A stretch of DNA of 32,000 bases, from contig NZ_CP179200.1 of NCBI RefSeq assembly GCF_051201565.1, positions 510,001 to 542,000 of the forward strand. The letters run 5' to 3'. The notes under the pieces were generated by a model. It had not been told where the DNA came from. It worked only from the letters and a program-made list of their open reading frames with translations, and did not search any database. The stretch comes from Pseudothioglobus sp. nBUS_23 (lineage in GTDB: Bacteria; Pseudomonadota; Gammaproteobacteria; PS1; Pseudothioglobaceae). Positions 1-20,446 of the stretch are shown piece by piece (the first letter of the stretch is position 1; each line of letters begins with the position of its first letter). Position numbers and translations under genes: made by a program.

Positions 1-1653
1 CTACAACCAAAAATCTCAAAAAGTGAAATTAATTTGGTTATGGATTTATATTCAACTGGCCAATTTAAGGAGGCAGTTGAAAAAATTAAAGAATTAAATA
101 ACAAATTTCCAAATGTACCTATATTATTTAATTTAATTGGGGCATGTTACAAAGAATTAGGACACCTTGAGGGTTCAGCAAAGATGTTTGAAAATGCAAT
201 AAACATTAAGCCACATTATGCTGAAGCACACTTCAATCTTGGAGCAGTACTAAAGATATTAAACAAAGATAATGAGTCAATTCAATCTTATAGGAATGCA
301 ATAGCAATTAATCATAAATATCCCGATGCACTTAATAATCTTGGAAGAGCTTTACACGAACTTGGGGAGTATGATGAAGCAATTGATTTATTAGAGTGGG
401 CTATCGCCTACAAACACGATTTTTCAGAAGCTCACAATAATCTTGGAAATGTCCTTAATGACATTGGAAAAGTAAGTGAAGCAATAGAAAGCTTTAAAAA
501 AGCTATCACGCATAATCCAAATTATTCATCAGCATACTATAATCTTGCATCTGCTCATAAAGATATAGGCAATAAAAATGCCTACCTAAAATATATTGAA
601 AAATCAGTTCAATTAAGGCCAAATTGGGGAGAGGCAAATTTCAATTTAAGTCAGGTTAAAGACTATTCCAATGGGGATCCTCACATCAAGAAAATGGAGT
701 CATTGCTGAAAATAAATAACTTAGAATTAACGGATCAAATAGGTTTAAATTTTGCTCTAGCTCACGCCTATGATAAGCTTGGAAATCATGAAAAACAATT
801 CAAATTCTTAAACGAAGCAAACAAACTGAGAAAACAAGAGGCAAATTATTCTTTTTCAATAGATAAAAATAGGTTTGCATTAGTTAAAGCTTTGTTTAAT
901 TCAAGTCCAGTTAGCCTTGAAAAGTTAAAAACTAAATCAAAAGATAAGAGACCCATTTTCATTGTTGGCATGCCTCGATCTGGAACGTCTCTAGTTCATC
1001 AAATTATCGATAGTCATCAAAAAGTAAGTGGTTTAGGAGAGTTAACTATTTTGTCAAAAATAATTAACCAGTTTTTTAGACAACATGATTCTGATGATGT
1101 TATTTCTAATGAGGAGTTGCTTTTGATAAGAAACAACTATTTACAGTATATTTCTTCATTAAAGATAAATAATAATATTTTTATTGACAAAATGCCTTTA
1201 AATTTTCGGCATATTGGGTTTATTCTTGCAGCTTTTCCAGAAGCAAAGATTATTCACATGAAAAGAGATAGTATGGCTACTTGTTGGTCAATTTATAAGT
1301 ATTACTTTAATGGCAACCTATACTCTTATAATCAAAAAGATTTAGGGAAGTACTATAAATTATATGAGGACCTTATGAGGTATTGGGACAAAAAATTTCC
1401 AACAAAAATTTATAATATTTCATATGAAGATCTTACTCTCAATCAAGAGCAAGAAACTCGGAAGCTTATTGATTACTGTGGGCTAGATTGGGATGAAAAT
1501 TGTTTGAACTTTTATAAAAACAAAGGGGCTGTTAAAACAACTAGTGCTCTTCAAGTAAGACAGAAAATGTATCAGGGTAGTTCAGAAGTTTGGAAAAAAT
1601 ATGAAAACCACCTAGAGGATCTGATTACTGTATTAGATTATTACAAAAAATAA
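1..1653 (+). CDS. TPR-repeat protein with C-terminal sulfotransferase domain (5' end runs off the window)
   Basis: The ORF track gives 34..1653 from a TTG. Frame 1 is open from nt 1 (LQPKISKSEINLVMDLYSTG...), and that stretch aligns with the conserved N-terminal motif of the three downstream paralogs (..SKIEIDSIINLFSNG.. and ..KEQIDSVVSLYSSG..), so the true start lies upstream of the window. There are about 6 TPR units (AEAHFNLG, ALNNLG, SEAHNNLGN, SSAYYNLA, GEANFNL). These are followed by a PAPS-binding loop 'IFIVGMPRSGTSLVHQI' and 'IIHMKRDSMATCWS', typical of Sulfotransfer_3-type enzymes. Confidence 0.8.
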   Translation, partial: LQPKISKSEINLVMDLYSTGQFKEAVEKIKELNNKFPNVPILFNLIGACYKELGHLEGSAKMFENAINIKPHYAEAHFNLGAVLKILNKDNESIQSYRNAIAINHKYPDALNNLGRALHELGEYDEAIDLLEWAIAYKHDFSEAHNNLGNVLNDIGKVSEAIESFKKAITHNPNYSSAYYNLASAHKDIGNKNAYLKYIEKSVQLRPNWGEANFNLSQVKDYSNGDPHIKKMESLLKINNLELTDQIGLNFALAHAYDKLGNHEKQFKFLNEANKLRKQEANYSFSIDKNRFALVKALFNSSPVSLEKLKTKSKDKRPIFIVGMPRSGTSLVHQIIDSHQKVSGLGELTILSKIINQFFRQHDSDDVISNEELLLIRNNYLQYISSLKINNNIFIDKMPLNFRHIGFILAAFPEAKIIHMKRDSMATCWSIYKYYFNGNLYSYNQKDLGKYYKLYEDLMRYWDKKFPTKIYNISYEDLTLNQEQETRKLIDYCGLDWDENCLNFYKNKGAVKTTSALQVRQKMYQGSSEVWKKYENHLEDLITVLDYYKK

Positions 1654-1654
1654 T

Positions 1655-4357
1655 ATGAATAAGATAAAACCATCCAAAATTGAAATTGACTCTATCATTA
1701 ATCTTTTTTCTAATGGGGATTTAGAAAAATGTCTAGAGACTATTGCAATTTTAATCAAAGACTATCCCGAAGAGTCTTTGTTATTTAATATTCAGGGTGC
1801 CTGTTATGCTGCTTTAGGGCAGTCTGATAATTCAGTGAAATCGTATAAAACTGCAATCACTTTAAAGCCAGATTATGCTAAAGCCCATTATAATTTGGGC
1901 GGCATTTTGCATGAAATTGGAAATTTAGATAAATCAGTTCATTCATACGAAAGCGCTCTCAGTATTGAGCCAGACTATGCAGAAGCCCACAACAATCTTG
2001 GCAATGTTTTTAGAGATCTTGGTAATCTAGATGAAGCTGCCAAAAGTTTTGAAAAAGCTTTAACCATTAATCAAGACTACATTGAGGCACGCTATTCACT
2101 TGCGATTGTCCTTCAAAAATTAGGAGATTTAGACTCTATAGATCATTTTGAAAAAGTTCTAGATATGAAACCAGACTTTGCAGAAGCTCACAATAACCTT
2201 GGCGTTGCATTAAAGGACATTGGCCAAGTTAATGAGGCGGTTGAATCATACAATAAAGCTTTAAAAATCAATCCAAATTATGCTCAAGCTTTAAATAATT
2301 TGGGTAATGCTTTAAGAGACCTTGGGAAATTTGAGGATGCAAAAGAAGCATATGAGAGGGCTTTAAGAATTAACGCTGATTATCCAACCCTGCATAATAA
2401 CCTTGGCAATGTTTTAAGAGAACTAGGAAGATTAGAGGAAGCTATTGAGTCATATCAGACTGCAATATCTCTTAATGAAGATAATCCTGATTCGTTTAAT
2501 AATTTAGGAGTAGTTTTTTTTACGCTTGGTGATTTAGATTCTGCAATTAGAGCTTATAAAAAAGCAATAATTATTAACCCAAATTTTGATAATGCACATA
2601 ATAATTTAGGCGCTGCTTATAAAAAAATAGGTGAATTTGATAAGGCGGTTGATTATTATCAAACGGCTTTAGTGATTGACAATCAAAATTTTGAAACTCA
2701 TAATAACTTAGGAAATGCTTGGTCAGAAATTGGAAATTATGATGAGGCAATTAAAAGCTTTAATAAAGCGATCGAAATTAATCCTGATTTCGAAGATGCC
2801 TATAATAACCTTGGGATTACTTTGTTGACGCAAGGAAGAATTGATGATGCATTTAAGTTAAATCAGAAGGCATTATCATTAAATCCAAATTTTGCTGAAG
2901 GGTATGTTTTTCAAGGTCGATTATTTTCTGAAATTGATCAGCAGGAAGAAGCATTAATTAGTTTTGAAAAGGCAAACACAATTAATCCAAAAATTGATTT
3001 TAACTTAAGTTCAATTTTAAATATGAAAATGGATCTTTGTGACTGGGATGGAATTGAAGATTTAGTTAGTGATTTGCCAAGGAAGCTAAATAACAGTGAA
3101 AAATTAATAAGACCTATGCTTTTAAGTGCATTGATTGATGATCCAACGCTTCAACATAAAGCTGCAGAAATATATTCAGAGTTTTACTTCCCAGAAAGCC
3201 ACCTTCTTCCTCAAATTCAAATATATCCAATTTCTTCAAAAACTCGTGTTGGTTATTTTTCTGCAGATTTCAAAGAGCACCCTGTCGCTAATTTGACTGC
3301 TGAACTCTATGAACTTCATGATAGAAATCAATTTGAAATTCATGCGTTTTCATTTGGTCCTGATACAAATGATGCAATGAACCTTCGAATAAAAAAAGGA
3401 GTTGATTACTTTCATGAAGTAAGCGAAATGTCGGATAAAGAAATTGCCATGCTTTCAAGATCTTTAAAGATCGATATAGCAGTTGATTTGGGAGGTTATA
3501 CTGCTGGAGCGAGAACAGGAATTTTTGCTTTAAGAGCAGCCCCTATTCAGGTAAATTATCTTGGGTATTCATGCACAATGGGCGCTAAATATATGGATTA
3601 TATAGTTGCTGACAGAACCATAATTAGTGAAGATCAGAAGATTAACTATTCGGAAAAAATTGTTTATTTGCCTGATTGCTTTATGGTTAATGATACAAAA
3701 GTGGCAAAATCTGAAAAAATATTCAATAAGGCCGAGGCTGGATTACCATCAGATAGTTTTATATTTTGCTGTTTTAATTCTCATCATAAATTTACTGAAA
3801 ATGTTTTTTCTAGCTGGATGAAGATCTTATTGAGCGTTGATAAAAGTGTTTTATGGCTCCCAAGTGGAGATAGATCTGCGTTAAACAACCTTAAAAAGGA
3901 AGCAGAAAAAAAAGATATTGATCCAAACCGTCTGATCTTTGCACCTCGTTTGGATTTAAGGGGAGACCACCTTAACAGAATCAAATTAGCAGATTTGTTT
4001 TTAGATACTCACCCATATAATGCTCACTCAACAGCTAGTGATGCTCTCCAAATGGGGCTTCCAGTTTTGACTTATGAGGGCTCTTCTTTTGCAAGTAGGG
4101 TGGCAACAAGTTTAAATAATGCTCTGCAATTAAATGAGTTAGTTGTTAATTCAGAAGATGAATATATATCTCTTGCAATTGAACTTGCAAAAAAACCTGA
4201 GATGATTCATGCCATTAAGTCTAAATTAAATTTAAATTTATCCACATCCAACTTATTTAATGCTGGAATATTTACTAAAAATATTGAATCTGCTTTTGAA
4301 AAGATGATCGATAGGTCTCAAAAAAAACTTGATCCAGATCATATTTATATTGATTAA
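1655..4357 (+). CDS. TPR-repeat / GT41-family (O-GlcNAc transferase, SPINDLY-like) glycosyltransferase, paralog A
   Basis: 900 aa. The ATG lies 1 nt after the upstream stop. There are about 12 34-aa TPR units with consensus AEAHNNLGNxxxxxGxxxEAxxSYxKAlxInP. The C-terminal ~450 aa aligns by eye (from memory of the sequence) with both catalytic lobes of human OGT: 'RVGYFSADFKEHPVANL' vs 'RVGYVSSDFGNHPTSHL'; 'GARTGIFALRAAPIQVNYLGYSCTMGAKYMDYIVAD' vs '[36 protein letters not shown]'; 'FCCFNSHHKF' vs '[10 protein letters not shown]' (Lys842 equivalent); 'DTHPYNAHSTASDAL' vs 'DTPLCNGHTTGMDVL'. Confidence 0.85.
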   Translation: MNKIKPSKIEIDSIINLFSNGDLEKCLETIAILIKDYPEESLLFNIQGACYAALGQSDNSVKSYKTAITLKPDYAKAHYNLGGILHEIGNLDKSVHSYESALSIEPDYAEAHNNLGNVFRDLGNLDEAAKSFEKALTINQDYIEARYSLAIVLQKLGDLDSIDHFEKVLDMKPDFAEAHNNLGVALKDIGQVNEAVESYNKALKINPNYAQALNNLGNALRDLGKFEDAKEAYERALRINADYPTLHNNLGNVLRELGRLEEAIESYQTAISLNEDNPDSFNNLGVVFFTLGDLDSAIRAYKKAIIINPNFDNAHNNLGAAYKKIGEFDKAVDYYQTALVIDNQNFETHNNLGNAWSEIGNYDEAIKSFNKAIEINPDFEDAYNNLGITLLTQGRIDDAFKLNQKALSLNPNFAEGYVFQGRLFSEIDQQEEALISFEKANTINPKIDFNLSSILNMKMDLCDWDGIEDLVSDLPRKLNNSEKLIRPMLLSALIDDPTLQHKAAEIYSEFYFPESHLLPQIQIYPISSKTRVGYFSADFKEHPVANLTAELYELHDRNQFEIHAFSFGPDTNDAMNLRIKKGVDYFHEVSEMSDKEIAMLSRSLKIDIAVDLGGYTAGARTGIFALRAAPIQVNYLGYSCTMGAKYMDYIVADRTIISEDQKINYSEKIVYLPDCFMVNDTKVAKSEKIFNKAEAGLPSDSFIFCCFNSHHKFTENVFSSWMKILLSVDKSVLWLPSGDRSALNNLKKEAEKKDIDPNRLIFAPRLDLRGDHLNRIKLADLFLDTHPYNAHSTASDALQMGLPVLTYEGSSFASRVATSLNNALQLNELVVNSEDEYISLAIELAKKPEMIHAIKSKLNLNLSTSNLFNAGIFTKNIESAFEKMIDRSQKKLDPDHIYID
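1667..2466. repeat. 800-bp direct repeat, copy 1 (inside paralog A)
   Basis: Line-by-line comparison shows 1667..2466 identical to 4388..5187 (offset 2721) with no mismatch seen. Identity starts a few codons after the two different start codons and ends at '..catatcagactgcaat'. Confidence 0.9.
3281..3424. repeat. 144-bp near-identical patch, paralog A copy
   Basis: 3281..3424 matches 6104..6247 with 1 mismatch (3382 c vs 6205 t). It encodes PVANLTAELYELHDRNQFEIHAFSFGPDTNDAMNLRIKKGVDYFHEVS. The offset is 2823, which is 2721 + 102. Confidence 0.85.
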
Positions 4358-4360
4358 TTT

Positions 4361-7177
4361 ATGAAGCATTTAAATGTTCCATCATCTAAACCATCCAAAA
4401 TTGAAATTGACTCTATCATTAATCTTTTTTCTAATGGGGATTTAGAAAAATGTCTAGAGACTATTGCAATTTTAATCAAAGACTATCCCGAAGAGTCTTT
4501 GTTATTTAATATTCAGGGTGCCTGTTATGCTGCTTTAGGGCAGTCTGATAATTCAGTGAAATCGTATAAAACTGCAATCACTTTAAAGCCAGATTATGCT
4601 AAAGCCCATTATAATTTGGGCGGCATTTTGCATGAAATTGGAAATTTAGATAAATCAGTTCATTCATACGAAAGCGCTCTCAGTATTGAGCCAGACTATG
4701 CAGAAGCCCACAACAATCTTGGCAATGTTTTTAGAGATCTTGGTAATCTAGATGAAGCTGCCAAAAGTTTTGAAAAAGCTTTAACCATTAATCAAGACTA
4801 CATTGAGGCACGCTATTCACTTGCGATTGTCCTTCAAAAATTAGGAGATTTAGACTCTATAGATCATTTTGAAAAAGTTCTAGATATGAAACCAGACTTT
4901 GCAGAAGCTCACAATAACCTTGGCGTTGCATTAAAGGACATTGGCCAAGTTAATGAGGCGGTTGAATCATACAATAAAGCTTTAAAAATCAATCCAAATT
5001 ATGCTCAAGCTTTAAATAATTTGGGTAATGCTTTAAGAGACCTTGGGAAATTTGAGGATGCAAAAGAAGCATATGAGAGGGCTTTAAGAATTAACGCTGA
5101 TTATCCAACCCTGCATAATAACCTTGGCAATGTTTTAAGAGAACTAGGAAGATTAGAGGAAGCTATTGAGTCATATCAGACTGCAATTCAAATTAGTCCA
5201 AATTATCAAGAAACTCATAATAATTTAGGTATTGCCTTATTTGATTTAGGAAGGCTTGAAGATGCAAAAAAATCATATCAAAATGCATTAGATATTGACC
5301 CAGAATTTGCTGAGACACACAATAATATTGGAACTGTTTATAAAGACTTAGGTCAAATTGAAAAAGCTATTAATTCATATGAAAAAGCTTTAGAGATTCG
5401 CCCAAATTATGCTGATGCATATAATAATCTTGGTGTTGTTTTAAAAAAAATTGGCCGCTTAGATGACGCTGTAAAATCTTATCAATATGCACTCAACATC
5501 AATCCAAATGATGCTGATACATTAAATAATTTAGGAAATATTCTATCTGAACTTGAAATTTTAAATGAGTCTGTTGAATCGTTTGAAAAAGCGATACAGT
5601 TAAGCCCTAATTTTGCAGAAGCTCATAATAACTTGAGTGTTGCTTTAATGAAGCTCAATCAATTAGATGAAGCATACAAATTCAATAAAATTGGTTTGAC
5701 TCTTAAGAAAGATTTCGTCGAAGGTTACATAACGCAAGGCCGAATTCTGTCAATGCAAAATGATCTTGAGAGGGCTCTACTAAGTTTTGAGAGGGCTCAT
5801 CAGATCAAACCTGATATTGAATTTAATTTAGGAAGTATTTTACAAACTAAGATGCGAATGTGTGATTGGAGCAACTTGAAAAATTTGCTGAATGAATTAA
5901 TAATTAAGATAAATAACAATGAGAAAGCTATATTACCAATGGATCTTTTATCCCTAATTGATGATCCAGAACTTCAGTTCAAAAGCTCAAGAATTTTTGC
6001 CAATTTTGAATATCCTTCAAGTGATATTTTGCCAAAGCTTGAGAAGTATAGAAATCATAGTAGGATAAAGATTGGGTATTTTTCTGCCGATTTTAAAGAT
6101 CATCCTGTCGCTAATTTGACTGCTGAACTCTATGAACTTCATGATAGAAATCAATTTGAAATTCATGCGTTTTCATTTGGTCCTGATACAAATGATGCAA
6201 TGAATCTTCGAATAAAAAAAGGAGTTGATTACTTTCATGAAGTAAGCCAAATGTCCGATAAAGAAATTGCATTATTGTCTAGATCAGTTGAAATAGATAT
6301 TGCAATAGATTTGTCAGGTTACACGGAAGGCTGTAGAACTAAAATATTTTCTATGTCAGCTGCTCCAATTCAAGCAAGTTATATTGGCTTATTGAGTTCA
6401 ATGGGATCTGATTATTATGACTATATAATTGCTGGCGAAGGGATGATTCCAGAGCAGAATCAGAAATATTTCTCTGAAAAAATTATTTATCTCCCTAGTT
6501 ATCAAGTCAATGATTCAAAAGAATTGCCCCCAGATATTGAAATTTCCCGAGCAGAACTTAATCTACCAGAGAATAGCTTTGTTTTTTGTTGTTTTAATAA
6601 CACATATAAAATAACACCAGCTATTTTTGATAGTTGGGCTCGTATTCTTAAAAGAGTTGAGAATAGTGTTCTGATGGTTTATGTTAACAATGAAACATCA
6701 CAAAATAACTTGATTAAAGAAATCGATAAAAGGAATGTTGATACAAGCAGACTTTTTTTTGGTGGTAATTTGTCTAGACAAAAATATTTAGCGAGATACC
6801 GCGTTGCTGACTTATTTTTAGATACATCTCCCTATAATGCGGGCACGACAGCAAGTGATGCTCTCAGAATGGGGCTGCCTGTTTTAACTTTAGAGGGTAA
6901 TTCTTTTAATAGTAAAGAGGCTTCAGGTGTTATCAGGTCTTTAAATTTATCTGAGCTTATAACAAATTCTCAGGAAGAGTACGAGTCAGTAGCTATTGAG
7001 TTGGCTAAAAACCCAGGAAAATTAAGAGACCTTAAAGATAAATTATCTATCAATTTAACTTCTGCTCCACTATACGATACTGAATTATTTACAAAAAATC
7101 TTGAGTCTGCCCTAAAAGAGATCTATGCAAGATATCAAAATGACTTAAAAACAGAATATATATATGTTAGCAAGTAA
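4361..7177 (+). CDS. TPR-repeat / GT41-family glycosyltransferase, paralog B
   Basis: 938 aa. The start is 3 nt after the paralog A stop. The first ~270 aa are identical to paralog A, coded by an identical 800-bp stretch. There are about 13 TPR units. The GT41 lobes carry 'IGYFSADFKDHPVANL', 'FCCFNNTYKITPAIFDSWARILKRVENSVL' (compare human OGT '[28 protein letters not shown]') and 'DTSPYNAGTTASDALRMGLPVLT'. Confidence 0.85.
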   Translation: MKHLNVPSSKPSKIEIDSIINLFSNGDLEKCLETIAILIKDYPEESLLFNIQGACYAALGQSDNSVKSYKTAITLKPDYAKAHYNLGGILHEIGNLDKSVHSYESALSIEPDYAEAHNNLGNVFRDLGNLDEAAKSFEKALTINQDYIEARYSLAIVLQKLGDLDSIDHFEKVLDMKPDFAEAHNNLGVALKDIGQVNEAVESYNKALKINPNYAQALNNLGNALRDLGKFEDAKEAYERALRINADYPTLHNNLGNVLRELGRLEEAIESYQTAIQISPNYQETHNNLGIALFDLGRLEDAKKSYQNALDIDPEFAETHNNIGTVYKDLGQIEKAINSYEKALEIRPNYADAYNNLGVVLKKIGRLDDAVKSYQYALNINPNDADTLNNLGNILSELEILNESVESFEKAIQLSPNFAEAHNNLSVALMKLNQLDEAYKFNKIGLTLKKDFVEGYITQGRILSMQNDLERALLSFERAHQIKPDIEFNLGSILQTKMRMCDWSNLKNLLNELIIKINNNEKAILPMDLLSLIDDPELQFKSSRIFANFEYPSSDILPKLEKYRNHSRIKIGYFSADFKDHPVANLTAELYELHDRNQFEIHAFSFGPDTNDAMNLRIKKGVDYFHEVSQMSDKEIALLSRSVEIDIAIDLSGYTEGCRTKIFSMSAAPIQASYIGLLSSMGSDYYDYIIAGEGMIPEQNQKYFSEKIIYLPSYQVNDSKELPPDIEISRAELNLPENSFVFCCFNNTYKITPAIFDSWARILKRVENSVLMVYVNNETSQNNLIKEIDKRNVDTSRLFFGGNLSRQKYLARYRVADLFLDTSPYNAGTTASDALRMGLPVLTLEGNSFNSKEASGVIRSLNLSELITNSQEEYESVAIELAKNPGKLRDLKDKLSINLTSAPLYDTELFTKNLESALKEIYARYQNDLKTEYIYVSK
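4388..5187. repeat. 800-bp direct repeat, copy 2 (inside paralog B)
   Basis: This is the partner of 1667..2466. The flanking bases differ on both sides (t/a at 4387/1666, t/a at 5188/2467). Confidence 0.9.
6104..6247. repeat. 144-bp near-identical patch, paralog B copy
   Basis: This is the partner of 3281..3424. The flanks are clearly more diverged. Confidence 0.85.
6509..6670. repeat. 162-bp near-identical patch, paralog B copy
   Basis: 6509..6670 matches 8918..9079 (offset 2409) with 1 synonymous mismatch (6649 t vs 9058 g). It encodes NDSKELPPDIEISRAELNLPENSFVFCCFNNTYKITPAIFDSWARILKRVENSV. Confidence 0.85.
6783..6889. repeat. 107-bp near-identical patch, paralog B copy
   Basis: 6783..6889 matches 9192..9298 (same offset, 2409) with 2 synonymous mismatches. 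The ~110 bp between this patch and the previous one is only roughly 60% identical by eye. Confidence 0.85.
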
Positions 7178-9586
7178 ATGAAAAATATCGAGGATAAAAA
7201 AAATCTTTCAAAAGAGCAAATTGATTCTGTTGTGTCATTATATTCTTCGGGAAAATTTATTGAAGCAATCGATGCAATTAATTTACTAAATGTGGAGTAT
7301 CCTAATGTTCCCCTTTTATATAATATTTTAGGTGTATGTCATAAGTCATTAAATCATCTTAATGAGGCGATAATTATGTTTCAGAGAGCAATAGATATTA
7401 AAGATGATTATTATGAAGCACATAAGAATTTAGGCCTTACATTTAAGGCCCTTGGTAGCTTGGATAAAGCAATTAATTGTTTTAAATATGCTCTAAAAAT
7501 CAATCCAAAATATCTTGATGCATATTACAACTTAGCAAATACTTATAATGATTTAGAAAATTTTGATGATGCGGTTACTAACTATAAAAGCGCAATACTG
7601 ATTAATCCAAATATTGCAGAAATATATAATAATCTTGGGAATGCTTTAAGAGAGAAAGGTGATCTAAATGATGCTCTTAAAAGCTATGAAAGCGCAATAG
7701 CAATAAATCCAAATATTGCTGAAATTTATAATAATATTGGAAATACTTTAAAAGACCTTGAAAGACTAGATGATGCTTTGAATAGTTACCAGAAAGCAAT
7801 AGAAATTAGTTCAAATTTTTCTGAAGCTTATTACAATAAAGGAATAGTTCTAAAGCGTCAACGAAAGTTAAATCTTGCTATTAAGAGTCTCAATAAAGCA
7901 ATTGAAATTAATCCCGAATTTGCTGAAGCTTACAATAATCTAGCTAGCTCACTTATTGCTCTAGGAAAAACTTCAAAGGCGATTGAATATTGTGAAAAAG
8001 CAATTAGACTAAAACCTAATTATGCAGAGGCATATAATAATTTTGGCAATATTCTCAAAGATTTAAGGATGTCTGATGCTGCTAAAAAATACTATGAAAA
8101 AGCAATAGAAATTAAGTCAGATTATGCCGAAGCAATAAGTAATCTTGGGACAATTTTTAGTGATAAAAAAAACAAAGAAAAAGCATTAGTTTTCTATGAA
8201 AAAGCATACAGTATTGATCCGAAGATTGATTTTCTTCTGGGCGATATAATTAATACTCAAATGAATTTATGTATCTGGGAAGGTCTGGACTCTAAAATTG
8301 AAGAATTAAAACTTGGATTAAAAAATAATCAAAAAATCATTGGTCCTTTTCCTTTGCTCAGCCTTATTGATGATCCTCAGATTCAACAAAAAGCGTCAGA
8401 ACAATTTGCAAGTTTTTATTATCCTAAAAACAATTCTTTTCCTGTAACTAGTAAACATAAAAAACATAAAAAAATAAAGATAGGTTATTTTTCCGCAGAT
8501 TTTAAGCAGCATCCAGTAGCCACATTAACTGCTGAACTTTATGAATTGCATGATAGAAGCAAATTTGAAATTCACGCATTTTCATTTGGGCCAGATACAC
8601 AAGATCCAATGAATTTAAGAATTAAGGCTGGTGTTGACTTCTTTCATGATGTATTAAATTCTTCTCATGATGAGATAGTTAGGTTGGCAAGATTAAATGA
8701 AATTGATATTGCAATTGATTTGGGAGGATATACAGCTAAGTCTAGAACTGAAATTTTTGCGATGTCAGTTGCTGAAATACAAATTTGTTACATAGGATAT
8801 CTTGGAACAATGGGGGCGGATTATTATGATTATATAATTGCAGATAAAATAATGATTCCAGAGGAAAATCAAAAATACTATTCCGAAAATATAGTCTATT
8901 TACCTAATTTTCAAGTAAATGATTCAAAAGAATTGCCCCCAGATATTGAAATTTCCCGAGCAGAACTTAATCTACCAGAGAATAGCTTTGTTTTTTGTTG
9001 TTTTAATAACACATATAAAATAACACCAGCTATTTTTGATAGTTGGGCTCGTATTCTGAAAAGAGTTGAGAATAGTGTTTTATTGATATATGTGAATAAC
9101 GAGTCTTCTCAAAAAAATTTAACAACAGAAATAATAAAAAGAAATATAGATTCTAATCGGCTTATTTTTGGAAAAAGTTTACCAAGGCCAGAATATTTAG
9201 CGAGATACCGCGTTGCTGACTTATTTTTAGATACATCTCCCTATAATGCAGGCACGACAGCAAGTGATGCTCTCAGAATGGGGTTGCCTGTTTTAACTAT
9301 GAAAGGAAATGCATATCCAAGTAGAATGGCAGCGAGCATATTAAATGCAGTCCATTTAAATGAATTAATAACAAATAACCATAAAGAGTATGAGTCTCTT
9401 GCTATTGAGCTTGCATTAAATAAAAAACAATTAAAGCAAATTAAAGAAAAATTAAATACTAATCTTGAAACTGCACCTCTATTCGATACTGCCAAATTTA
9501 CCAAAAATATTGAATCCGCTTATCAGCAAATGTATGAGATAAATCGCAAAAATCAAAACCCAGAAAATATTATTATTGAACATTAA
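7178..9586 (+). CDS. TPR-repeat / GT41-family glycosyltransferase, paralog C
   Basis: 802 aa. The ATG directly abuts the paralog B stop (TAAATG). There are about 9-10 TPR units. The GT41 lobes carry 'IGYFSADFKQHPVATL', 'FCCFNNTYKITPAIFDSWARILKRVENSVL' and 'DTSPYNAGTTASDALRMGLPVLT'. Two DNA patches are near-identical to paralog B. Confidence 0.85.
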   Translation: MKNIEDKKNLSKEQIDSVVSLYSSGKFIEAIDAINLLNVEYPNVPLLYNILGVCHKSLNHLNEAIIMFQRAIDIKDDYYEAHKNLGLTFKALGSLDKAINCFKYALKINPKYLDAYYNLANTYNDLENFDDAVTNYKSAILINPNIAEIYNNLGNALREKGDLNDALKSYESAIAINPNIAEIYNNIGNTLKDLERLDDALNSYQKAIEISSNFSEAYYNKGIVLKRQRKLNLAIKSLNKAIEINPEFAEAYNNLASSLIALGKTSKAIEYCEKAIRLKPNYAEAYNNFGNILKDLRMSDAAKKYYEKAIEIKSDYAEAISNLGTIFSDKKNKEKALVFYEKAYSIDPKIDFLLGDIINTQMNLCIWEGLDSKIEELKLGLKNNQKIIGPFPLLSLIDDPQIQQKASEQFASFYYPKNNSFPVTSKHKKHKKIKIGYFSADFKQHPVATLTAELYELHDRSKFEIHAFSFGPDTQDPMNLRIKAGVDFFHDVLNSSHDEIVRLARLNEIDIAIDLGGYTAKSRTEIFAMSVAEIQICYIGYLGTMGADYYDYIIADKIMIPEENQKYYSENIVYLPNFQVNDSKELPPDIEISRAELNLPENSFVFCCFNNTYKITPAIFDSWARILKRVENSVLLIYVNNESSQKNLTTEIIKRNIDSNRLIFGKSLPRPEYLARYRVADLFLDTSPYNAGTTASDALRMGLPVLTMKGNAYPSRMAASILNAVHLNELITNNHKEYESLAIELALNKKQLKQIKEKLNTNLETAPLFDTAKFTKNIESAYQQMYEINRKNQNPENIIIEH
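8918..9079. repeat. 162-bp near-identical patch, paralog C copy
   Basis: This is the partner of 6509..6670. Confidence 0.85.
9192..9298. repeat. 107-bp near-identical patch, paralog C copy
   Basis: This is the partner of 6783..6889. Confidence 0.85.
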
Positions 9587-9650
9587 AAAACTTAAGAGTA
9601 TTAAAATATAGCCTATAGATGTTTTCAAGATTATATTAGAGACCCAGATA

Positions 9651-10802
9651 ATGAAAAAGCCAGTGCAAGATATGTCTACTATGGAGGATAAATCTGACAA
9701 TATAGTTTTGTTTTATCCCCAGGTATCTGACCTAGCAAAACAGTATGTTGTGGACACGTTAAACTCTCGCTGGATTGGACAAGGCCCAAAAGTTAAATTA
9801 TTTGAAGACAGATTTAGTAAAAAATTCGGATCCAATCGGCCAGCTATTGCTGTGGGCTCAGGGACAGACGCATTACACTTGTCATATATATTAGCTGGAT
9901 TGAAACCTGGTGATGAAGTTATCGCACCTCTTTTTACATGTACCGCAACAAACATCCCTTTTCTTTATATGGGGGTGAAAATTAATTTTGCAGATATTGA
10001 CCCTGAAACTATGAACATTGATGTTAATCATGTACGTGATTTAATGAATGAAAAAATCAAAGCAATTGTTTGTGTTCATTATGGCGGACTTCCCTGTGAT
10101 ATGGATGAGTTACAAACGATAGCAAATGAATGGAATGTGCCAATTATTGAGGATGCTGCTCATGCAGTTGGGGCAAGTTATAAAGGAGCTGTTATTGGAA
10201 GTATTTCGGATTTTACAATGTTCTCTTTTCAGGCTATAAAACATATCACCACTGGTGATGGTGGGATGTTAATCGTTAAAGATACAGAGTTGCTGGATAA
10301 AGCAGAGCGTATTAGATGGTTTGGGATAGATAGGAAGTCAAAACAGGCGGGCATTTGGGAAAATGATATTACAGAAGTTGGCTATAAATACCAAATGACT
10401 GATATTGCTGCTGCAATGGGTATCGCATCACTTAATGAATTTGATAGTCATTCAAATCATCGTAAAACTCTGTTCAAAGTTTATGAAGAAGAGTTAAGTA
10501 AATGTGAAAGGTTAAAAATAATTGGGAGTGGATTCAATGACAGAGAGCATGGTGCATGGTTGTTCACAGTTATTGTTGAAGATAGATATACACTTCAAAA
10601 AAAATTAAGAGATCATGGGATTGAAAGCAATCAGGTCCATTTTAGAAATGATAGGTATTCAATTTTTAAAGAATTCACTTATGGAAAAATTTTTCCAAAT
10701 ATGGATAAAATTGAAGAAGACTATCTAGTTTTACCTCTCCACACAAAAATGACAGAAAATGATGTTAAGCGGGTTTGTTTTGTTATCAAATCTGGATGGT
10801 AG
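9651..10802 (+). CDS. DegT/DnrJ/EryC1/StrS-family PLP-dependent sugar aminotransferase
   Basis: The protein shows 'GTDALHLSYILAGLKPGDEVIAPLFTCTAT', 'IIEDAAHAVGASYKG' and 'FSFQAIKHITTGDGGML' (PLP lysine), typical of NDP-4-keto-sugar aminotransferases. The start is uncertain: in-frame ATGs at 9651, 9672 and 9681 are all possible, and family members usually begin ~10 aa before the 'LFYPQV' position. Confidence 0.85.
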   Translation: MKKPVQDMSTMEDKSDNIVLFYPQVSDLAKQYVVDTLNSRWIGQGPKVKLFEDRFSKKFGSNRPAIAVGSGTDALHLSYILAGLKPGDEVIAPLFTCTATNIPFLYMGVKINFADIDPETMNIDVNHVRDLMNEKIKAIVCVHYGGLPCDMDELQTIANEWNVPIIEDAAHAVGASYKGAVIGSISDFTMFSFQAIKHITTGDGGMLIVKDTELLDKAERIRWFGIDRKSKQAGIWENDITEVGYKYQMTDIAAAMGIASLNEFDSHSNHRKTLFKVYEEELSKCERLKIIGSGFNDREHGAWLFTVIVEDRYTLQKKLRDHGIESNQVHFRNDRYSIFKEFTYGKIFPNMDKIEEDYLVLPLHTKMTENDVKRVCFVIKSGW

Positions 10803-10845
10803 AGAAAGTGCTATAAATTTATAAGGTTATTATTAATACCTACAT

Positions 10846-11919
10846 ATGAAAATCAATAAGAAAATATTAGTCACTGGGGGTGCCGGTTTCATAGGTTCTG
10901 CAATGGTTAGACATTTAATTGATAGTACACACTCAACCGTCATAAACGTTGATAAACTAACTTATTCTGGAAATTTACAGTCTCTAGAATCAGTCAAAAA
11001 TAATAAAAATTACTTTTTTGAGAATGCTGATATATGCAATATTAATGACTTAAATAGAATCCTGAATAACTATCAGCCAGATATGTTAGTTCATCTTGCT
11101 GCTGAGTCGCATGTCGATCGCTCAATAGATAGTCCTGCTGAGTTCATCCAAACAAATGTAATTGGAACATTCAATCTCTTGGAGTCAGCTAAAAGCTATT
11201 GGGAGCAGCTTAAAGATCTTAAAAAAGAAAATTTTCGATTTCTTCATGTCTCAACAGATGAAGTCTACGGTGATTTGGAGAATACAAGTGATTTTTTTAC
11301 TGAAGATACATCATATAATCCGAGCTCTCCATATTCAGCGTCTAAGGCGAGTTCAGATCACCTTGTACGAGCATGGTTTAGAACATTTAAAATCCCAACT
11401 CTAATTACTAATTGCTCAAATAATTATGGACCATGCCAATTTCCTGAAAAATTAATTCCCCATATTATTCTTAGTGCCCAAAAAGGAGAAAAGTTACCAG
11501 TTTATGGTGATGGAAAGCAAATCAGGGATTGGCTGTATGTTGAAGACCATGTCCAAGCACTGGTAGCTGTTCTAATGAAAGGTAAGCCTGGTCAAACCTA
11601 TAATATTGGTGGTAATAATGAAATTCAGAATATTGATGTAGTTAAGAGAATTTGTACTATTTTAGATTCAAAAATTCCAAATAAATTAAATGGATTGAAA
11701 TCTTTTAGTGATTTAATATGTTTTGTTAAGGATAGACCTGGACATGATTTAAGGTATGCGATTGATGCTAGTAAAATTCAAACTGAAATTGAGTGGATTC
11801 CGAAAGAAAACTTTGAATCAGGTTTGGAAAAAACCATATCTTGGTATTTAGATAATAATGAATGGTGTAGTAACGTTCAAAATGGAAATTATAAGTTTAT
11901 TCGTCTTGGAGAAATTTAA
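10846..11919 (+). CDS. rfbB: dTDP-glucose 4,6-dehydratase
   Basis: The protein has the Rossmann motif '[12 protein letters not shown]', the catalytic 'YSASKASSD' (YxxxK), and '[12 protein letters not shown]'. Confidence 0.95.
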
Positions 11920-12801
11920 ATGAAGGGAATTATTTTGGCAGGAGGATCAGGAACTCGACTTTATCCTTTAACTAAAAGTGTTTCTAAGCAATTATTGCCT
12001 GTATATGATAAACCAATGATTTATTACCCATTGTCAGTTCTGATGCTTGCTGGAATTAAAGATGTCTTAATTATTTCGACTCCAGAGGATTTGCAAAGAT
12101 TCCAAAGTCTTTTTGGTAATGGTTCTGATTTAGGTATGAATTTTGAATATATAGCTCAGCCTGCACCAGATGGGTTAGCTCAGGCATTTATTTTAGGAGA
12201 GGAGTTTATTGGGTCAGATAATGTTGCCTTAATTCTGGGAGACAATATTTTTTATGGACAGGGACTAACTAGTTTTTTAGAACAAGGTGTATCAAATGTC
12301 CTAAAAAATAATATAGCAACTGTATTTGCTTACCATGTCAATAATCCTTCTCGCTATGGGGTTGTGGAGTTTGATGAAAATGATAAAGCGATAAGTATTG
12401 AAGAAAAGCCCAAGGAGCCAAAGAGTAATTATGCAGTCACTGGTTTATATTTTTATCCAAATGATGTAGTGAAAAAAGCTATAACCGTCAAGCCATCAAA
12501 AAGAGGTGAATTAGAGATTACTAGTGTTAATGAAATGTATCTTAAGGAAGGGCGCTTAAAGGTTTCATTACTTGGAAGAGGTTATGCCTGGTTAGATACT
12601 GGTTCACATGAAGATCTTTTGGAGGCTTCGACTTTTATTGAAACAATTGAGAGAAGACAAGGCTTGAAGGTTGCTTGTATAGAAGAAATTGCATTTGAAA
12701 AAGGTTATATTTCTAAAGAACAATTATCAATAATTTCTAGTCAAATGAGTAACAATCAATATGGGAAATATTTGTATAGAAGGTTAGAAGAAAAAAAATA
12801 A
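11920..12801 (+). CDS. rfbA: glucose-1-phosphate thymidylyltransferase
   Basis: The protein shows '[18 protein letters not shown]', 'LGDNIFYG' and '[16 protein letters not shown]'. Its ATG directly abuts the rfbB stop. Confidence 0.95.
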
Positions 12802-12802
12802 A

Positions 12803-13357
12803 ATGCACTTTATTGCCCAGTCCATTCCAGAAGTTTTAGTTATAGAACCCCTAGTTCATTTTGATGAGCGAGGCTATTTTATAGAATCATTTAGGCAAGA
12901 CTTGCTTGAAAAAAAACTGGGTTACCAAGTAAATTTTATTCAAGATAATGAATCAAAATCAAATCAAATGGGCATTCTACGGGGCCTACATTATCAAATA
13001 GCTCCATTTACTCAAAGTAAGTTAGTGAGAGTAAGTAAAGGAAGAGTTTTAGATGTTGCTGTTGATATTAGAAAAGATAGTGCAACTTTTGGTAAATATG
13101 TTGCAGTTGAGCTGAGTGATCAGAATAAAAGACAAGTTTTTATACCAAAAGGATTTGCCCACGGCTTTGTTGTTTTGAGTGAAGATGCGATTTTTTCCTA
13201 TAAGGTTGATCAGTATTACTCCAAAAAGCATGAAAGAGGCTTGATATTCAATGATAAAGACATCAACATCGATTGGCACATATCTGAAGAAGAGTTGATT
13301 CTATCAGTTGCAGATCAAGGCTACTCTTCGTTGAAAAATAATCAATTTTTGCTTTAG
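12803..13357 (+). CDS. rfbC: dTDP-4-dehydrorhamnose 3,5-epimerase
   Basis: The protein shows 'DERGYF.E', 'RGLHYQ', 'KLVRVSKGRVLDVAVDIRKDSATFG' and 'IPKGFAHGF'. Confidence 0.95.
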   Translation: MHFIAQSIPEVLVIEPLVHFDERGYFIESFRQDLLEKKLGYQVNFIQDNESKSNQMGILRGLHYQIAPFTQSKLVRVSKGRVLDVAVDIRKDSATFGKYVAVELSDQNKRQVFIPKGFAHGFVVLSEDAIFSYKVDQYYSKKHERGLIFNDKDINIDWHISEEELILSVADQGYSSLKNNQFLL

Positions 13358-13363
13358 CTGTTA

Positions 13364-14239
13364 ATGAATATTTTAGTAACTGGATCAAATAGCCAACTTG
13401 GAAAATCTCTAAAACAACTCTCTGATGAAAAAAATATTTCCAATAATTTTGTTTTTACTTCTAGAGAGCAACTAGATTTATCATCTATAACTGAGCTTGA
13501 AATTTTCATAGAATCTGGAAACTTTGATTTTATTGTCAATTTTGCCGCATATACAAGTGTTGATGAAGCAGAAAACAATAAAAAACAAGCTTATATAATC
13601 AATCACTTGGCAGTGAAAAGAATTGCAGAAATTTCAAAAAAAAATCAAATAAAGTTAATCCATCTCTCTTCAGATTTTGTCTTTGATGGTAGTAAAAATG
13701 AACCCTATAATGAAAATGATAATGCTTTTCCTATAAATATCTATGGCAAAAGTAAATATGCTGGTGAGCAAGCAATTCTAAAGGCTATGAAGACGAATGC
13801 TATTATCTTAAGAACTAGTTGGATGTATTCAGAATACGGTAATAATTTTGTTGATACAATTCTAAGACTTTCAAGAAAAAATGACACTTTAAATGTTGTT
13901 ACTGATCAAATTGGAAACCCAACATATGCAAGAGACTTAAGTCAATTAATTATGAAAATTATAATGAGCGATAAAATAAATTCGATTGATCAGTCATCAG
14001 AAATATTTCACTATTCTAATGAAGGTAGTTGCAGTTGGTATGATTTTGCCAGAGAAGTGATAAAAATTTCTGGAAACCAATGCATAATTAATCCCATATT
14101 GTCAAAAAAATATCCTTCAAAAGCAATAAGACCAAAAAATTCCTCAATGAGCAAAAAAAAAGTAATGAATGAATTTAATATTAAGACTACTTCTTGGAAG
14201 GATTCATTAAAAAAATGTATTGATAACATTTCAAAGTAA
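13364..14239 (+). CDS. rfbD: dTDP-4-dehydrorhamnose reductase
   Basis: The protein shows 'MNILVTGSNSQLG', 'YGKSKYAGE' (YxxxK), 'LRTSWMYS' and 'DQIGNPTYA'. Confidence 0.9.
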   Translation: MNILVTGSNSQLGKSLKQLSDEKNISNNFVFTSREQLDLSSITELEIFIESGNFDFIVNFAAYTSVDEAENNKKQAYIINHLAVKRIAEISKKNQIKLIHLSSDFVFDGSKNEPYNENDNAFPINIYGKSKYAGEQAILKAMKTNAIILRTSWMYSEYGNNFVDTILRLSRKNDTLNVVTDQIGNPTYARDLSQLIMKIIMSDKINSIDQSSEIFHYSNEGSCSWYDFAREVIKISGNQCIINPILSKKYPSKAIRPKNSSMSKKKVMNEFNIKTTSWKDSLKKCIDNISK

Positions 14240-14264
14240 TTTGATTAATTTAAGGACGCACTAA

Positions 14265-15209
14265 TTGAACAGTATTAAAGTAATAATTCCTAGAAGACTC
14301 AAAGGGGAAAGACTTGACTCTGCAATATCTGGGTTGTTGCCAAATATTTCGCGCTCAAAAATATCTTTACAGATTAAATCTGGCAAAGCACGGATTAATG
14401 ATAAAAATTTTAAGTCAAATGATAAAGTTGTTGGTGATGAAATTGTTAGTCTTGTTATAGACAAAAAAAAGAATAATAATTGGACTGCAGAAAAAATTCC
14501 TTTAGATATTGTTTTTGAAGATGAAGACATTATTGTGATTAATAAGCCATGGGGCATGGTTACTCATCCTGGAGCTGGAAATTGGACTGGAACTCTAGCA
14601 AATGCGCTATTAGACTATGATGATAATTTATCTAAACTTGACAGAGCTGGAATTGTTCATAGGTTAGATAAAAACACATCAGGTTTAATGGTAGTAGCAA
14701 AAAACTCTAAGTCACAAAAAAATCTTGTTGAACAACTGCAACAACACTTGGTAAAGAGAGAATATTCAGCTATAGTTTATGGGCAAATGATTTCCGGCGG
14801 TAAAGTTGATGAACCAATTGGAAGGCACCCTCGAGACAGGGTTAAGCAAGCAGTTCTCAGAAGTGGAAAAGATGCTATAACTCATTATAGAGTTGTGAAT
14901 CGTTATGATAATCATACACATGTAAAAGCTATTCTTGAAACTGGGAGAACTCATCAAATAAGGGTTCATTTATCTCATATTGGCCACCCTTTAATTGGTG
15001 ACCCAACCTATGGAGGCAGGCTAAGGTTTCCAAAAAAAGCAAAACAGGATTTAAAGGATGCTTTAAAAACTTTTGAAAGGCAGGCCCTTCACTCAAAAAA
15101 ATTAACCTTAAAACATCCAGAAAATGGAAATTCCATGACTTGGAAAATTGAGCTTCCAGATGATATGAAGCAGCTTCTTGAGGTTCTTAGTAGGATGAAT
15201 TCAATTTAA
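14265..15209 (+). CDS. rluD: 23S rRNA pseudouridine synthase, RluA family (RluD-like)
   Basis: The start is a TTG at 14265, with AGGA 8 nt upstream. The protein has an S4-like N-terminus, 'HRLDKNTSGLMVVAK' (catalytic Asp) and 'GRTHQIRVH'. It is followed by yfiH/pgeF, as in E. coli. Confidence 0.85.
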   Translation: MNSIKVIIPRRLKGERLDSAISGLLPNISRSKISLQIKSGKARINDKNFKSNDKVVGDEIVSLVIDKKKNNNWTAEKIPLDIVFEDEDIIVINKPWGMVTHPGAGNWTGTLANALLDYDDNLSKLDRAGIVHRLDKNTSGLMVVAKNSKSQKNLVEQLQQHLVKREYSAIVYGQMISGGKVDEPIGRHPRDRVKQAVLRSGKDAITHYRVVNRYDNHTHVKAILETGRTHQIRVHLSHIGHPLIGDPTYGGRLRFPKKAKQDLKDALKTFERQALHSKKLTLKHPENGNSMTWKIELPDDMKQLLEVLSRMNSI

Positions 15210-15218
15210 TTATTAGGA

Positions 15219-15935
15219 ATGGACGGATTTCCTAAAAATGTCAAACTTATATCTACACAAAGATTTATTCATGGAGGCAGAAGCTCTGGAAACTTTAATA
15301 ATTTCAATTTAGCTTTACATGTTAATGATAATAAAGAAAATGTAATAGAAAATCGAAATATTCTCGAAGGTCTGTTTAATTTACCTTCTTCACCAGTATG
15401 GATAAATCAAGTACACTCATCTATTTGTATAGATGCTGCATTAACAAATACAATTATTGAAGCTGATGCAAGTTTTACATCTAGAGTGGGAATTGTTTGT
15501 GGAATTATGACTGCAGATTGCTTGCCAGTCTTTGTAAGTAAAAAAAATGGGACAATGGTTGGCCTTGCCCATGCTGGTTGGAGAGGGCTGGTTTCTGGAG
15601 TTATTGATAATCTAATCAAATCCTTTAATTCGGATGGAGAACATCTAATCGTTCATCTTGGCCCTGCAATTTCAAAGCATTACTTTGAAGTTGGAGAGGA
15701 AGTTATGAGGCTTTATTTGTCCAAAAATGTCAACTTTGAGCGTTCTTTTTTAATTAAAAATAATAAAATTTATCTTGATCTATACGATGCAGCCAAAGTG
15801 ATTCTTGAGGGTTTGCACATAAATTCAATTTCTGGTGGCGATAGGTGTACTTTTCATGAATCAGAAGATTTTTTTTCTTATCGGAGAGATGGGTTGAATT
15901 CTGGCAGAATGGCACATCTTATCTGGATGGAATAG
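15219..15935 (+). CDS. pgeF: YfiH/PgeF-family protein (DUF152, laccase-domain / peptidoglycan editing factor)
   Basis: The protein shows 'MTADCLPV', 'LAHAGWRGL' and 'CTF....FFSYRRDG..GRM'. The conserved rluD-yfiH adjacency supports the call. Confidence 0.85.
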   Translation: MDGFPKNVKLISTQRFIHGGRSSGNFNNFNLALHVNDNKENVIENRNILEGLFNLPSSPVWINQVHSSICIDAALTNTIIEADASFTSRVGIVCGIMTADCLPVFVSKKNGTMVGLAHAGWRGLVSGVIDNLIKSFNSDGEHLIVHLGPAISKHYFEVGEEVMRLYLSKNVNFERSFLIKNNKIYLDLYDAAKVILEGLHINSISGGDRCTFHESEDFFSYRRDGLNSGRMAHLIWME

Positions 15936-15946
15936 GGCTCGTTTTA

Positions 15947-17148: not shown

Positions 17149-17156
17149 TCATCTAA

Positions 17157-18797: not shown

Positions 18798-18803
18798 ATT
18801 GTA

Positions 18804-20420: not shown

Positions 20421-20446
20421 ATTAAATATTCTAAATGGAGAATAAA

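Follow-up and report, generated by a model that had tools for sequence, protein, structure and literature searches.

In Synechococcus elongatus, the tetratricopeptide repeat (TPR)-GT41 enzyme Ogt is required for glycosylation of the pilin PilA and was judged to be cytoplasmic (PMC9306852). The cyanobacterial Ogt/OgtA enzymes, including that of Nostoc punctiforme, are encoded by a single gene, use uridine diphosphate-N-acetylglucosamine (UDP-GlcNAc) as the donor, and adjoin pilin genes in 38% of cyanobacterial genomes (PMC9306852). In Caulobacter, the TPR domain of FlmG binds flagellins, and its glycosyltransferase domain shows no in vivo activity by itself (PMC7591256). Enterobacterial GT41 genes have been described in variable flagellin glycosylation islands beside sugar-nucleotide pathways, including that of rhamnose (PMC4875605). 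The HMW1C/NGT enzymes are cytoplasmic GT41s acting on proteins (PMC3012730, PMC11329713), and HmwC of Yersinia pestis was reported to O-GlcNAcylate multiple proteins (PMC11329713). As for sulfation, RaxST sulfates the RaxX peptide and the outer-membrane protein Omp1X (PMC4646787, PMC4892823). In the present study, we analyzed a 32-kb stretch of the genome of Pseudothioglobus sp. nBUS_23 (contig NZ_CP179200.1, positions 510,001 to 542,000; hereafter the window), which opens with a cassette of four genes for TPR-headed enzymes, one sulfotransferase (g1) and three GT41 glycosyltransferases (g2, g3, and g4), continued by sugar-nucleotide genes. We found no paper describing this cassette and none connecting Thioglobus with OGT-like genes. 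The reading that we favor, tentatively and with less than even confidence, is cytoplasmic, TPR-guided glycosylation with deoxythymidine diphosphate (dTDP)-6-deoxyhexoses, together with sulfation, of a protein encoded elsewhere, in a hypervariable surface-diversity island.

The four genes were arranged on the plus strand with intergenic gaps of only 1, 3, and 0 nt according to the list of open reading frames (ORFs). Gene g1 (1..1653) encodes a TPR head and a TPST-like sulfotransferase using 3'-phosphoadenosine 5'-phosphosulfate (PAPS), while g2 (1655..4357), g3 (4361..7177), and g4 (7178..9586) each encode a TPR array followed by a GT41 domain. About 6, 12, 13, and 10 in-register repeats were counted in g1, g2, g3, and g4, respectively. 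The window edge truncates g1 at its 5' end; the g1 frame is open from base 1, and the first start codon inside the window is a TTG at 34. Because a start at this TTG would remove the conserved head motif, and because relatives of g1 carry 9-10 extra N-terminal residues, we placed the true start just upstream of the window. The head motif, S-K-x-[EQ]-I-[DN]-x-[VI]-x-x-L-[FY]-S-x-G, was found in all four proteins, where it corresponds to a degenerate TPR that begins the array. The head of g1 was 39-46% identical to the GT41 heads in register vs 23-30% at shifted registers; judged by this alignment, it is position-specifically homologous to them. NCBIfam returned generic TPR matches for the cassette proteins, nearly all below the cut-off, and the few that passed were driven by the TPR repeats. 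No transmembrane segment or signal peptide was found in g1-g4 (maximum 19-residue hydropathy ≤1.31), and the four products are predicted to be soluble, cytoplasmic enzymes. An initial annotation of this DNA had described four same-strand genes with these gaps, a common N-terminal motif in all four products, and one TPR-sulfotransferase beside three TPR-GT41s. The ORF coordinates, the motif in 4/4 proteins, and the Pfam and PDB sequence searches agreed with that description, and the Pfam matches that it had predicted, namely TPR, Sulfotransfer_3 (PF13469), and Glyco_transf_41 (PF13844), were obtained.

The sulfotransferase domain of g1 (approximately nt 952-1602, plus strand) matched PF13469 at residues 318-499 with an E-value of 8.8e-44 and a score of 150.8 bits against a cut-off of 27. 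Its PRSGTS P-loop, the Glu of GLGE (the catalytic base in TPST), and the RD..S 3'-phosphate motif aligned to TPST1, and all three were invariant in 12 and in 19 homologs. When the domain profile was compared with the PDB, TPST1/2 were matched at 4e-14 to 8e-12, CurM at 3e-5, and cytosolic SULTs at about 1e-3, and no carbohydrate sulfotransferase appeared at E ≤1 among the 60 profile matches listed. As a single sequence, g1 matched TPST at low identity, with E of about 1e-9. These comparisons agree with the PAPS-type sulfotransferase tail assigned to g1 at the outset, and they place the domain, among solved structures, nearest to the protein-tyrosine sulfotransferases, not to the carbohydrate ones. 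The AlphaFold2 (AF2) model of g1 had a predicted local distance difference test (pLDDT) score of 88, and its fold search matched mostly TPR proteins, OGT, and SPINDLY. TPST1/2, RaxST, and g1 are alike in having a PF13469-type PAPS sulfotransferase domain with the P-loop, the Glu base, and the 3'-phosphate motif. RaxST is accompanied by the PAPS-supplying RaxP/RaxQ, and similarly an adenosine 5'-phosphosulfate (APS) kinase gene is coupled to the g1-type gene in relatives. Unlike raxST, which is adjoined by raxX, g1 is adjoined by no substrate gene. TPST and RaxST are without a TPR head, whereas g1 has one of six repeats.

The GT41 domains were matched by PF13844 at 1.6e-74 (g2, 251.6 bits), 2.5e-68 (g3, 231.1 bits), and 1.4e-74 (g4, 251.8 bits), the cut-off being 25 bits. 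Each protein was matched in two stretches, the best of which covered profile positions 78-234 in g2 and 351-543 in g3 and g4. These two-stretch matches indicated that both GT41 lobes are present and that the metazoan intervening domain is absent, as initially annotated; in addition, the two-domain alignment to human OGT (hOGT) passed over chain residues 411-501. In the PDB sequence search, the catalytic half of g4 matched human OGT at 1.8e-64, XcOGT at 1.5e-58, Thermobaculum terrenum OGT at 4.6e-50, and SPINDLY at 5.8e-41. The three paralogs were then compared residue by residue through the hOGT segments aligned in this search. The equivalents of hOGT D554, H558, K842, R904, T921/T922, and D925 were kept in g2, g3, and g4, except that T921 is Ser in g2; in g4 they are D441, H445, K614, R676, T693, T694, and D697. 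We take these residues to have the catalytic and nucleotide-binding roles assigned to them in OGT. Other pocket positions were changed relative to hOGT, including Q839 to Asn or Ser, K898 to Arg, and C917 to Tyr. The equivalents of hOGT 839-842 read S-H-H-K in g2 and N-T-Y-K in g3 and g4, that of H901 is His in g2 and Tyr in g3/g4, and that of H920 is His in g2 and Gly in g3/g4; the donor-site His residues retained by g2 are H772 and H791. The Gly variant at H920 and the Tyr variant at H901 were nearly invariant among 28 clade members. The divergent C-lobe of g2 was an outlier, being 45-52% identical to every other paralog and having a separate set of closer homologs. The donor of g2 plausibly differs from that of g3/g4. 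Compared with OGT, XcOGT, and Thermobaculum OGT, the cassette enzymes share the TPR superhelix, the two-lobed GT41 domain, and the core catalytic residues, and like the bacterial OGTs they are without the intervening domain. They differ in being three tandem, recombining paralogs with an altered donor pocket, and in having dTDP-sugar genes as neighbors instead of genes for UDP-GlcNAc metabolism or for an O-GlcNAc hydrolase.

Pairwise DNA alignment of the paralogs, whose background identity is 50-65%, revealed exact tracts shared among the three GT41 genes, all on the plus strand. The heads of g2 and g3 are identical over 800 nt (1667..2466 = 4388..5187), and their N-lobes share exact tracts of 101 and 42 nt (3281..3424 = 6104..6247). 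In turn, g3 and g4 share exactly 140 nt in the donor-motif region of the C-lobe (6509..6648 = 8918..9057) and a further 58 nt (6783..6840 = 9192..9249), so that g3 is a mosaic of tracts held in common with g2 and with g4. Tandem Repeats Finder detected in g4 a tandem duplication of 102 nt, the length of one TPR, with 2.2 copies and 75% matches (7604..7825); this repeat shows how the TPR number shifts between paralogs. The same homogenization was observed in relatives. Within the complete genome CP159806, identity among the three C-lobes is 96-100%, against 35-67% among the heads; in a related contig (L084), one pair of C-lobes is 100% identical and one pair of heads 94%. Based on the exact tracts, the same homogenization in two other genomes, and the TPR duplication, we concluded that the paralogs evolve by gene conversion and repeat duplication, which re-assort heads and lobes. 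The initial annotation had proposed a shared head with interchangeable tails. The identical 800-nt head of g2 and g3 fits that proposal, but g3 and g4 share tail segments behind different heads, and the C-lobes are homogenized in relatives. The alignments point to combinatorial module shuffling, in which both heads and tails are exchanged, rather than to a fixed head.

The array is followed on the same strand by a gene for a DegT/DnrJ/EryC1-family sugar aminotransferase (9651..10802; PF01041, 1.7e-96) and by the dTDP-L-rhamnose pathway genes rmlB (10846-11919), rmlA (11920-12801), rmlC (12803-13357), and rmlD (13364-14239), which were assigned from their translations. The NCBIfam matches of the DegT protein, PseC and WecE among them, were all below cut-off; the enzyme probably makes dTDP-4-amino-4,6-dideoxyhexose from the RmlB product. 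From g1 to rmlD, the successive gaps are 1, 3, 0, 64, 43, 0, 1, and 6 nt. No plus-strand terminator-like site was found in the intergenic gaps of positions 1-14300, and the lone plus-strand site in this interval, at 6860, is weak and lies within g3; the promoter and terminator scans ran at background level and are informative solely for the absence of plus-strand terminators. The short gaps and the scan fit the tight co-transcription implied by the single operon of the first description, and g1 through rmlD likely form one transcription unit. That description had drawn the unit at four genes, which stands for those four but not for its extent: DegT-rmlBACD continues it, and the cassette spans from upstream of the window edge to nt 14239. 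The guanine-plus-cytosine (GC) content was 0.29-0.34 over the cassette vs 0.35-0.43 in the downstream housekeeping genes. Rfam and tRNA scans of the 32-kb window returned nothing.

The nearest named homologs of the cassette enzymes belong to Candidatus Pseudothioglobus singularis and Candidatus Thioglobus (SUP05/Arctic96BD-19 group). We compared eleven contexts, the window included and contigs L002 and L085 counted as one; the related contigs were 70-79% identical in nucleotides to the housekeeping flanks of the window. In the complete genome CP159806 (L001), the order is sucD, APS kinase, a TPR-sulfotransferase on the minus strand, a second TPR-sulfotransferase, three TPR-GT41s, and rluD, followed by the flank order of the window, with no rml genes. 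Upstream of rluD, L003 carries two TPR-sulfotransferases, one GT41, and rmlBACD; L084 carries two TPR-sulfotransferases, a TPR-only protein, three GT41s, and rmlBACD, with a sugar C-methyltransferase, DegT, FdtA, and epimerases beyond rluD; L086 carries a GT41 and rmlBACD; and L088 carries at least five GT41s and rmlBACD. Between sbmA and corC, L083 has a GT41 array, rmlBACD, a TPR-sulfotransferase, a CysQ-like phosphatase, and APS kinase, and L087 has a GT41 array and rmlBACD. Between ileS and rluB, L089 has three GT41s and rmlBACD (8650-19700), and L092 has a sulfotransferase and a GT41 (7784-11437). The L002/L085 context comprises a 2-oxoglutarate (2OG)-Fe(II) oxygenase, a TPR-only protein, a GT41, a TPR-sulfotransferase, and APS kinase, again with no rml genes.

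Across these contexts, the number of TPR-GT41 copies ranged from 1 to at least 5. The rmlBACD genes directly followed the last GT41 in eight of the eleven (the window, L003, L083, L084, L086, L087, L088, and L089), with Pfam support for the orthologs in L003, L084, and L086-L089. A TPR-sulfotransferase was present in seven of the nine assessable contexts, and APS kinase lay near the cassette in L001, L002/L085, and L083, the last of which also has the CysQ-like phosphatase. Thus, rml, DegT, the sulfotransferase, and cysC are each variably present, and rmlBACD (with or without DegT) is a closer partner of the GT41 array than the sulfotransferase is. Three chromosomal sites were occupied, namely sucD/cysC-rluD, sbmA-corC, and rluB-ileS. 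Since the GT41-rmlBACD order is kept at three sites, the cassette moves as a unit, and no integrase or repeat accounting for its movement was seen. The TPR enzymes of the window and its relatives were 47-57% identical in amino acids vs 57-89% for the flank proteins. Variable content between conserved flanks, three insertion sites, and low GC content characterize the locus as a hypervariable island.

Some further features were observed at these sites. In the window, rluB and ileS are adjacent, and the gap between them (26263-26382) is the insertion point of the cassette in L089 and L092. The sbmA-corC site, which holds the cassette in L083 and L087, holds a lone TPR-sulfotransferase in L005. 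In L002 (982-2576) and L085 (262-945), the GT41 is preceded by the 2OG-Fe(II) oxygenase, a prolyl-hydroxylase-like PF13640 protein, and by a TPR-only protein 227 residues long; TPR-only proteins are also encoded in L084 (428 residues) and L087 (312 residues); these genes may provide a hydroxylation step or catalytically empty "heads". In L083 (17185-19390), the TPR-sulfotransferase stands beside the CysQ-like gene of the inositol-phosphatase family and APS kinase, which, from their family assignments, would supply PAPS and clear its by-product, 3'-phosphoadenosine 5'-phosphate.

The initial annotation had proposed that conservation of the block in related genomes be checked. Co-conservation of the sulfotransferase and the GT41s was upheld in related genomes, but the pairing is not general. 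A genome scan with the sulfotransferase domain found at least 588 stretches with relatives, from Alpha-, Gamma-, and Deltaproteobacteria, Pelagibacter, Legionella, Burkholderia, and others. For neighborhood counts, 80 loci were kept of these sulfotransferase-seeded stretches, and a GT41 was counted when it lay within 10 kb; this was the case in only four of the 80. Most of the 80 loci held a single TPR-sulfotransferase gene of 500-800 residues. Their 132 flanking genes yielded 166 Pfam families with no dominant partner, the commonest being a methyltransferase family with six genes. With 4/80 loci from diverse bacteria, a general sulfotransferase-GT41 co-conservation was rejected, and the pairing is clade-specific. 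Homolog searches with the TPR-GT41s returned at least 8000 candidates, nearly all at E ≤1e-20, and the TPR-GT41 homolog of Pelagibacter is a lone gene. Another candidate came from a giant-virus metagenome-assembled genome of IMG/VR (GVMAG-M-3300021365-13, L093; GC 27%), in which positions 5800-10139 encode a TPR-GT41 of 904 residues, 48% identical to full-length g4, and then a TPR-methyltransferase of 504 residues. The neighboring genes look eukaryote-like or viral (RNB, protein kinase, phosphatidylinositol-specific phospholipase C, and dual-specificity phosphatase). This locus is another pair with a TPR head and a different tail, and its contig either belongs to a giant virus or was mis-binned.

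Compared with the cyanobacterial Ogt, the cassette GT41s are likewise soluble TPR-GT41s, the cyanobacterial enzyme modifying its protein in the cytoplasm before surface export. They differ in having no pilin gene nearby, in occurring as several paralogs, and in being linked to rml and sulfotransferase genes. FlmG shares the modular plan of a TPR head and a C-terminal glycosyltransferase; in contrast, it is a GT-B flagellin pseudaminyltransferase with a nonulosonic acid donor, and the cassette loci are without flagellar genes. The enterobacterial GT41s differ in that most are fused to methyltransferase domains. HMW1C acts before Sec-dependent export of its adhesin. Unlike the cassette enzymes, HMW1C/HmwC have no TPR array and use UDP-hexose or UDP-GlcNAc donors, and HMW1C is encoded beside its substrate adhesin. 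No flagellin, flagellar, or pilin gene was found in the 32-kb window or within 10 kb in the 11 contexts; the adjoining flagellar or pilin genes that mark a flagellin or pilin glycosylation island are thus absent.

In the reading that we tentatively favor, RmlABCD and DegT would make dTDP-L-rhamnose and dTDP-4-amino-4,6-dideoxyhexose. The TPR superhelices of the three TPR-GT41s would hold an extended acceptor polypeptide, and the sugars would be transferred onto it, with g2 probably using another donor than g3/g4. The TPST-like g1 would add sulfate from PAPS to tyrosine or to the glycan, the PAPS coming in relatives from the adjacent APS kinase. Gene conversion and TPR duplication would re-assort the heads, on the acceptor side, and the C-lobes, on the donor side, and the island would lead to diversified display, plausibly on a protein exported to the surface, with phages or grazers as the selective pressure. 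The dTDP-sugar donors, the protein acceptor, its export, and diversifying selection are the steps that we infer here. By analogy, a protein would be the best-precedented acceptor, because every characterized GT41 activity acts, to our knowledge, on protein and because g1 is nearest to the TPSTs. In its fullest form, which we consider rather unlikely, the cassette would encode the first GT41s to use dTDP-6-deoxyhexoses (protein O-rhamnosyl or aminodeoxyhexosyl transferases) together with a TPR-guided TPST-type sulfotransferase, and gene conversion re-pairing heads and lobes in one movable cassette would make it a combinatorial generator of sulfated glycoprotein surfaces.

Several points weigh against cytoplasmic protein glycosylation with dTDP-sugars. 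We know of no GT41 with a dTDP-sugar donor. In the AF2 model of g4, the catalytic N-lobe is poor, with a pLDDT below 50, and this model was set aside for pocket analysis and fold search. The rml genes are missing from the locus in L001 and L002/L085, and where present they could serve a lipopolysaccharide (LPS) pathway whose genes lie at another locus. Cytoplasmic capsule polymerases, too, can contain TPR domains, and one of them (PDB 8qoy) was among the fold matches. Comparable low-GC islands of Pelagibacter have been interpreted in published work as encoding surface polysaccharides. An Asn occupies TPR position 6 in nearly all repeats of g1-g4; this is part of the generic TPR consensus, so such an "Asn ladder" does not discriminate. 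No candidate acceptor gene linked to the cassette was found in the 11 contexts. In the downstream flank, the gene at 20435-21262 (plus strand) encodes a 275-residue protein rich in Thr, Ser, Asp, and Gly, with a signal-peptide-like N-terminus and a C-terminal Phe as in outer-membrane beta-barrels. It had no Pfam match and was 55-69% identical in relatives, and all four of its Tyr residues precede Asp. As a sulfation substrate it was rejected: a single one of the four Tyr residues is kept in both orthologs, with the rest replaced by Phe or His in one or both, and the gene belongs to the syntenic backbone.

The main rival, which we regard as somewhat unlikely, is a surface-polysaccharide glycotype island for LPS O-chain, outer core, or capsule. 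Here, the acceptor would be a lipid-linked or growing glycan, which the enzymes would turn into a sulfated polymer rich in rhamnose, the TPRs would scaffold or oligomerize the enzymes, and the initiating transferase and exporter would be encoded elsewhere. The rmlBACD and DegT genes are classic O-antigen and capsule genes and are tightly linked to the array, and the TPR-containing capsule polymerase among the fold matches provides a precedent for the architecture. The hypervariable region of Pelagibacter resembles the cassette loci in depressed GC content, conserved flanks around variable content, glycosyltransferases, DegT, epimerases/dehydratases, and sulfotransferases. Unlike such glycotype islands, the cassette has TPR-GT41s as its only glycosyltransferases, no membrane glycan-assembly genes, and three alternative sites. 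No flippase, polymerase, ATP-binding cassette (ABC) exporter, initiating polyprenyl-phosphate transferase, or ligase was found in the window or in the 11 related contexts (within 10 kb), even though the cassette moves between three sites. An O-antigen or capsule cluster would carry an initiating transferase together with Wzx/Wzy, an ABC exporter, or a synthase, and the loci have only the sugar-nucleotide genes in common with it; the TPR-GT41s are the sole glycosyltransferases beside the rml genes. The protein acceptors of characterized GT41s and the proximity of g1 to the TPSTs, with no carbohydrate sulfotransferase at E ≤1 among the 60 matches listed for its domain profile, also argue against a polymer.

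The strong homology to human OGT and the cytoplasmic location of the enzymes would also suit an OGT-style intracellular regulation, in which many cytoplasmic proteins are modified reversibly or broadly, as by metazoan OGT, with common donors such as UDP-GlcNAc, the rml neighbors being unrelated, and HmwC of Y. pestis, with its multiple O-GlcNAcylated proteins (PMC11329713), offers a parallel. We consider this improbable. A copy number of 1 to at least 5, together with fast divergence, gene conversion, low GC content, and translocation with rmlBACD, fits a diversifying accessory trait and not a conserved regulator. In addition, the H920 and H901 equivalents are Gly and Tyr in g3, g4, and most of the clade, and neither the window nor the 11 related loci contained an O-GlcNAc hydrolase gene.

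A further possibility, hardly a likely one, is that the cassette tailors a small secreted peptide or metabolite, such as a sulfated (glyco)peptide resembling RaxX or a rhamnoside carrying sulfate. The TPST/RaxST-like sulfotransferase with its dedicated PAPS supply would be in keeping with this, and the 2OG-Fe(II) oxygenase just upstream in one relative (L002/L085) recalls the predicted hydroxylase-sulfotransferase-PAPS synthase operons (PMC2938197). Against it, no precursor peptide, peptidase-exporter, nonribosomal peptide synthetase, or polyketide synthase gene was found in any locus, and superhelices of 10-13 TPRs are typical of long-polypeptide binders. Finally, an assembly artefact or a decaying pseudogene array, which the exact 800-nt and 140-nt repeats within one contig and the frameshifted copies on some related long-read contigs might suggest, is highly improbable because the four frames are intact, with conserved catalytic residues, and the same homogenization recurs in CP159806, a complete genome, as well as in an independent metagenome contig; the fragmented copies come from low-coverage (5.8x-12x) long-read contigs in which housekeeping genes are split too.

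Two other features were observed in the downstream flank. An AMP-binding, acyl-CoA synthetase-like gene (17157-18797, minus strand) is also present in L086, L088, and L092 and is replaced by an ORF of 49 residues in CP159806 (L001), so that its site is a second indel in the syntenic flank. A 133-residue protein consisting of a peptidase S24 domain only (LexA/UmuD-like; 15947-16348, minus strand) is encoded with a 13-nt overlap with the start of fpg (16336-17148, minus strand), and every relative examined retains the pair.

The family of each enzyme was known already, as were such islands in general. What is new is the cassette itself: one or more TPR-GT41s with rmlBACD, with or without DegT, a TPR-headed TPST-like sulfotransferase, and cysC, found at three insertion sites, with recurrent gene conversion of heads and lobes and an implied use of dTDP-sugars. 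Almost no marine TPR-GT41 has a known substrate or donor despite the abundance of these enzymes in marine metagenomes. The cassette provides a testable hypothesis for the whole clade, in which the glycosyltransferases travelling with a dTDP-rhamnose operon are all OGT-like and lie beside a TPST-like sulfotransferase and, in relatives, a PAPS supply. Its conversion of heads and tails is also a natural experiment on recombining TPR arrays and catalytic lobes. If the reading of protein glycosylation and sulfation is true, GT41 chemistry would extend to dTDP-sugars, and protein sulfation would occur in free-living marine bacteria. Some of the hypervariable "polysaccharide" islands that influence how marine phages and their hosts interact would then be protein-modification islands, and sulfated glycoprotein diversity would be a trait of an abundant ocean clade, with relatives in Pelagibacter and possibly in giant viruses.

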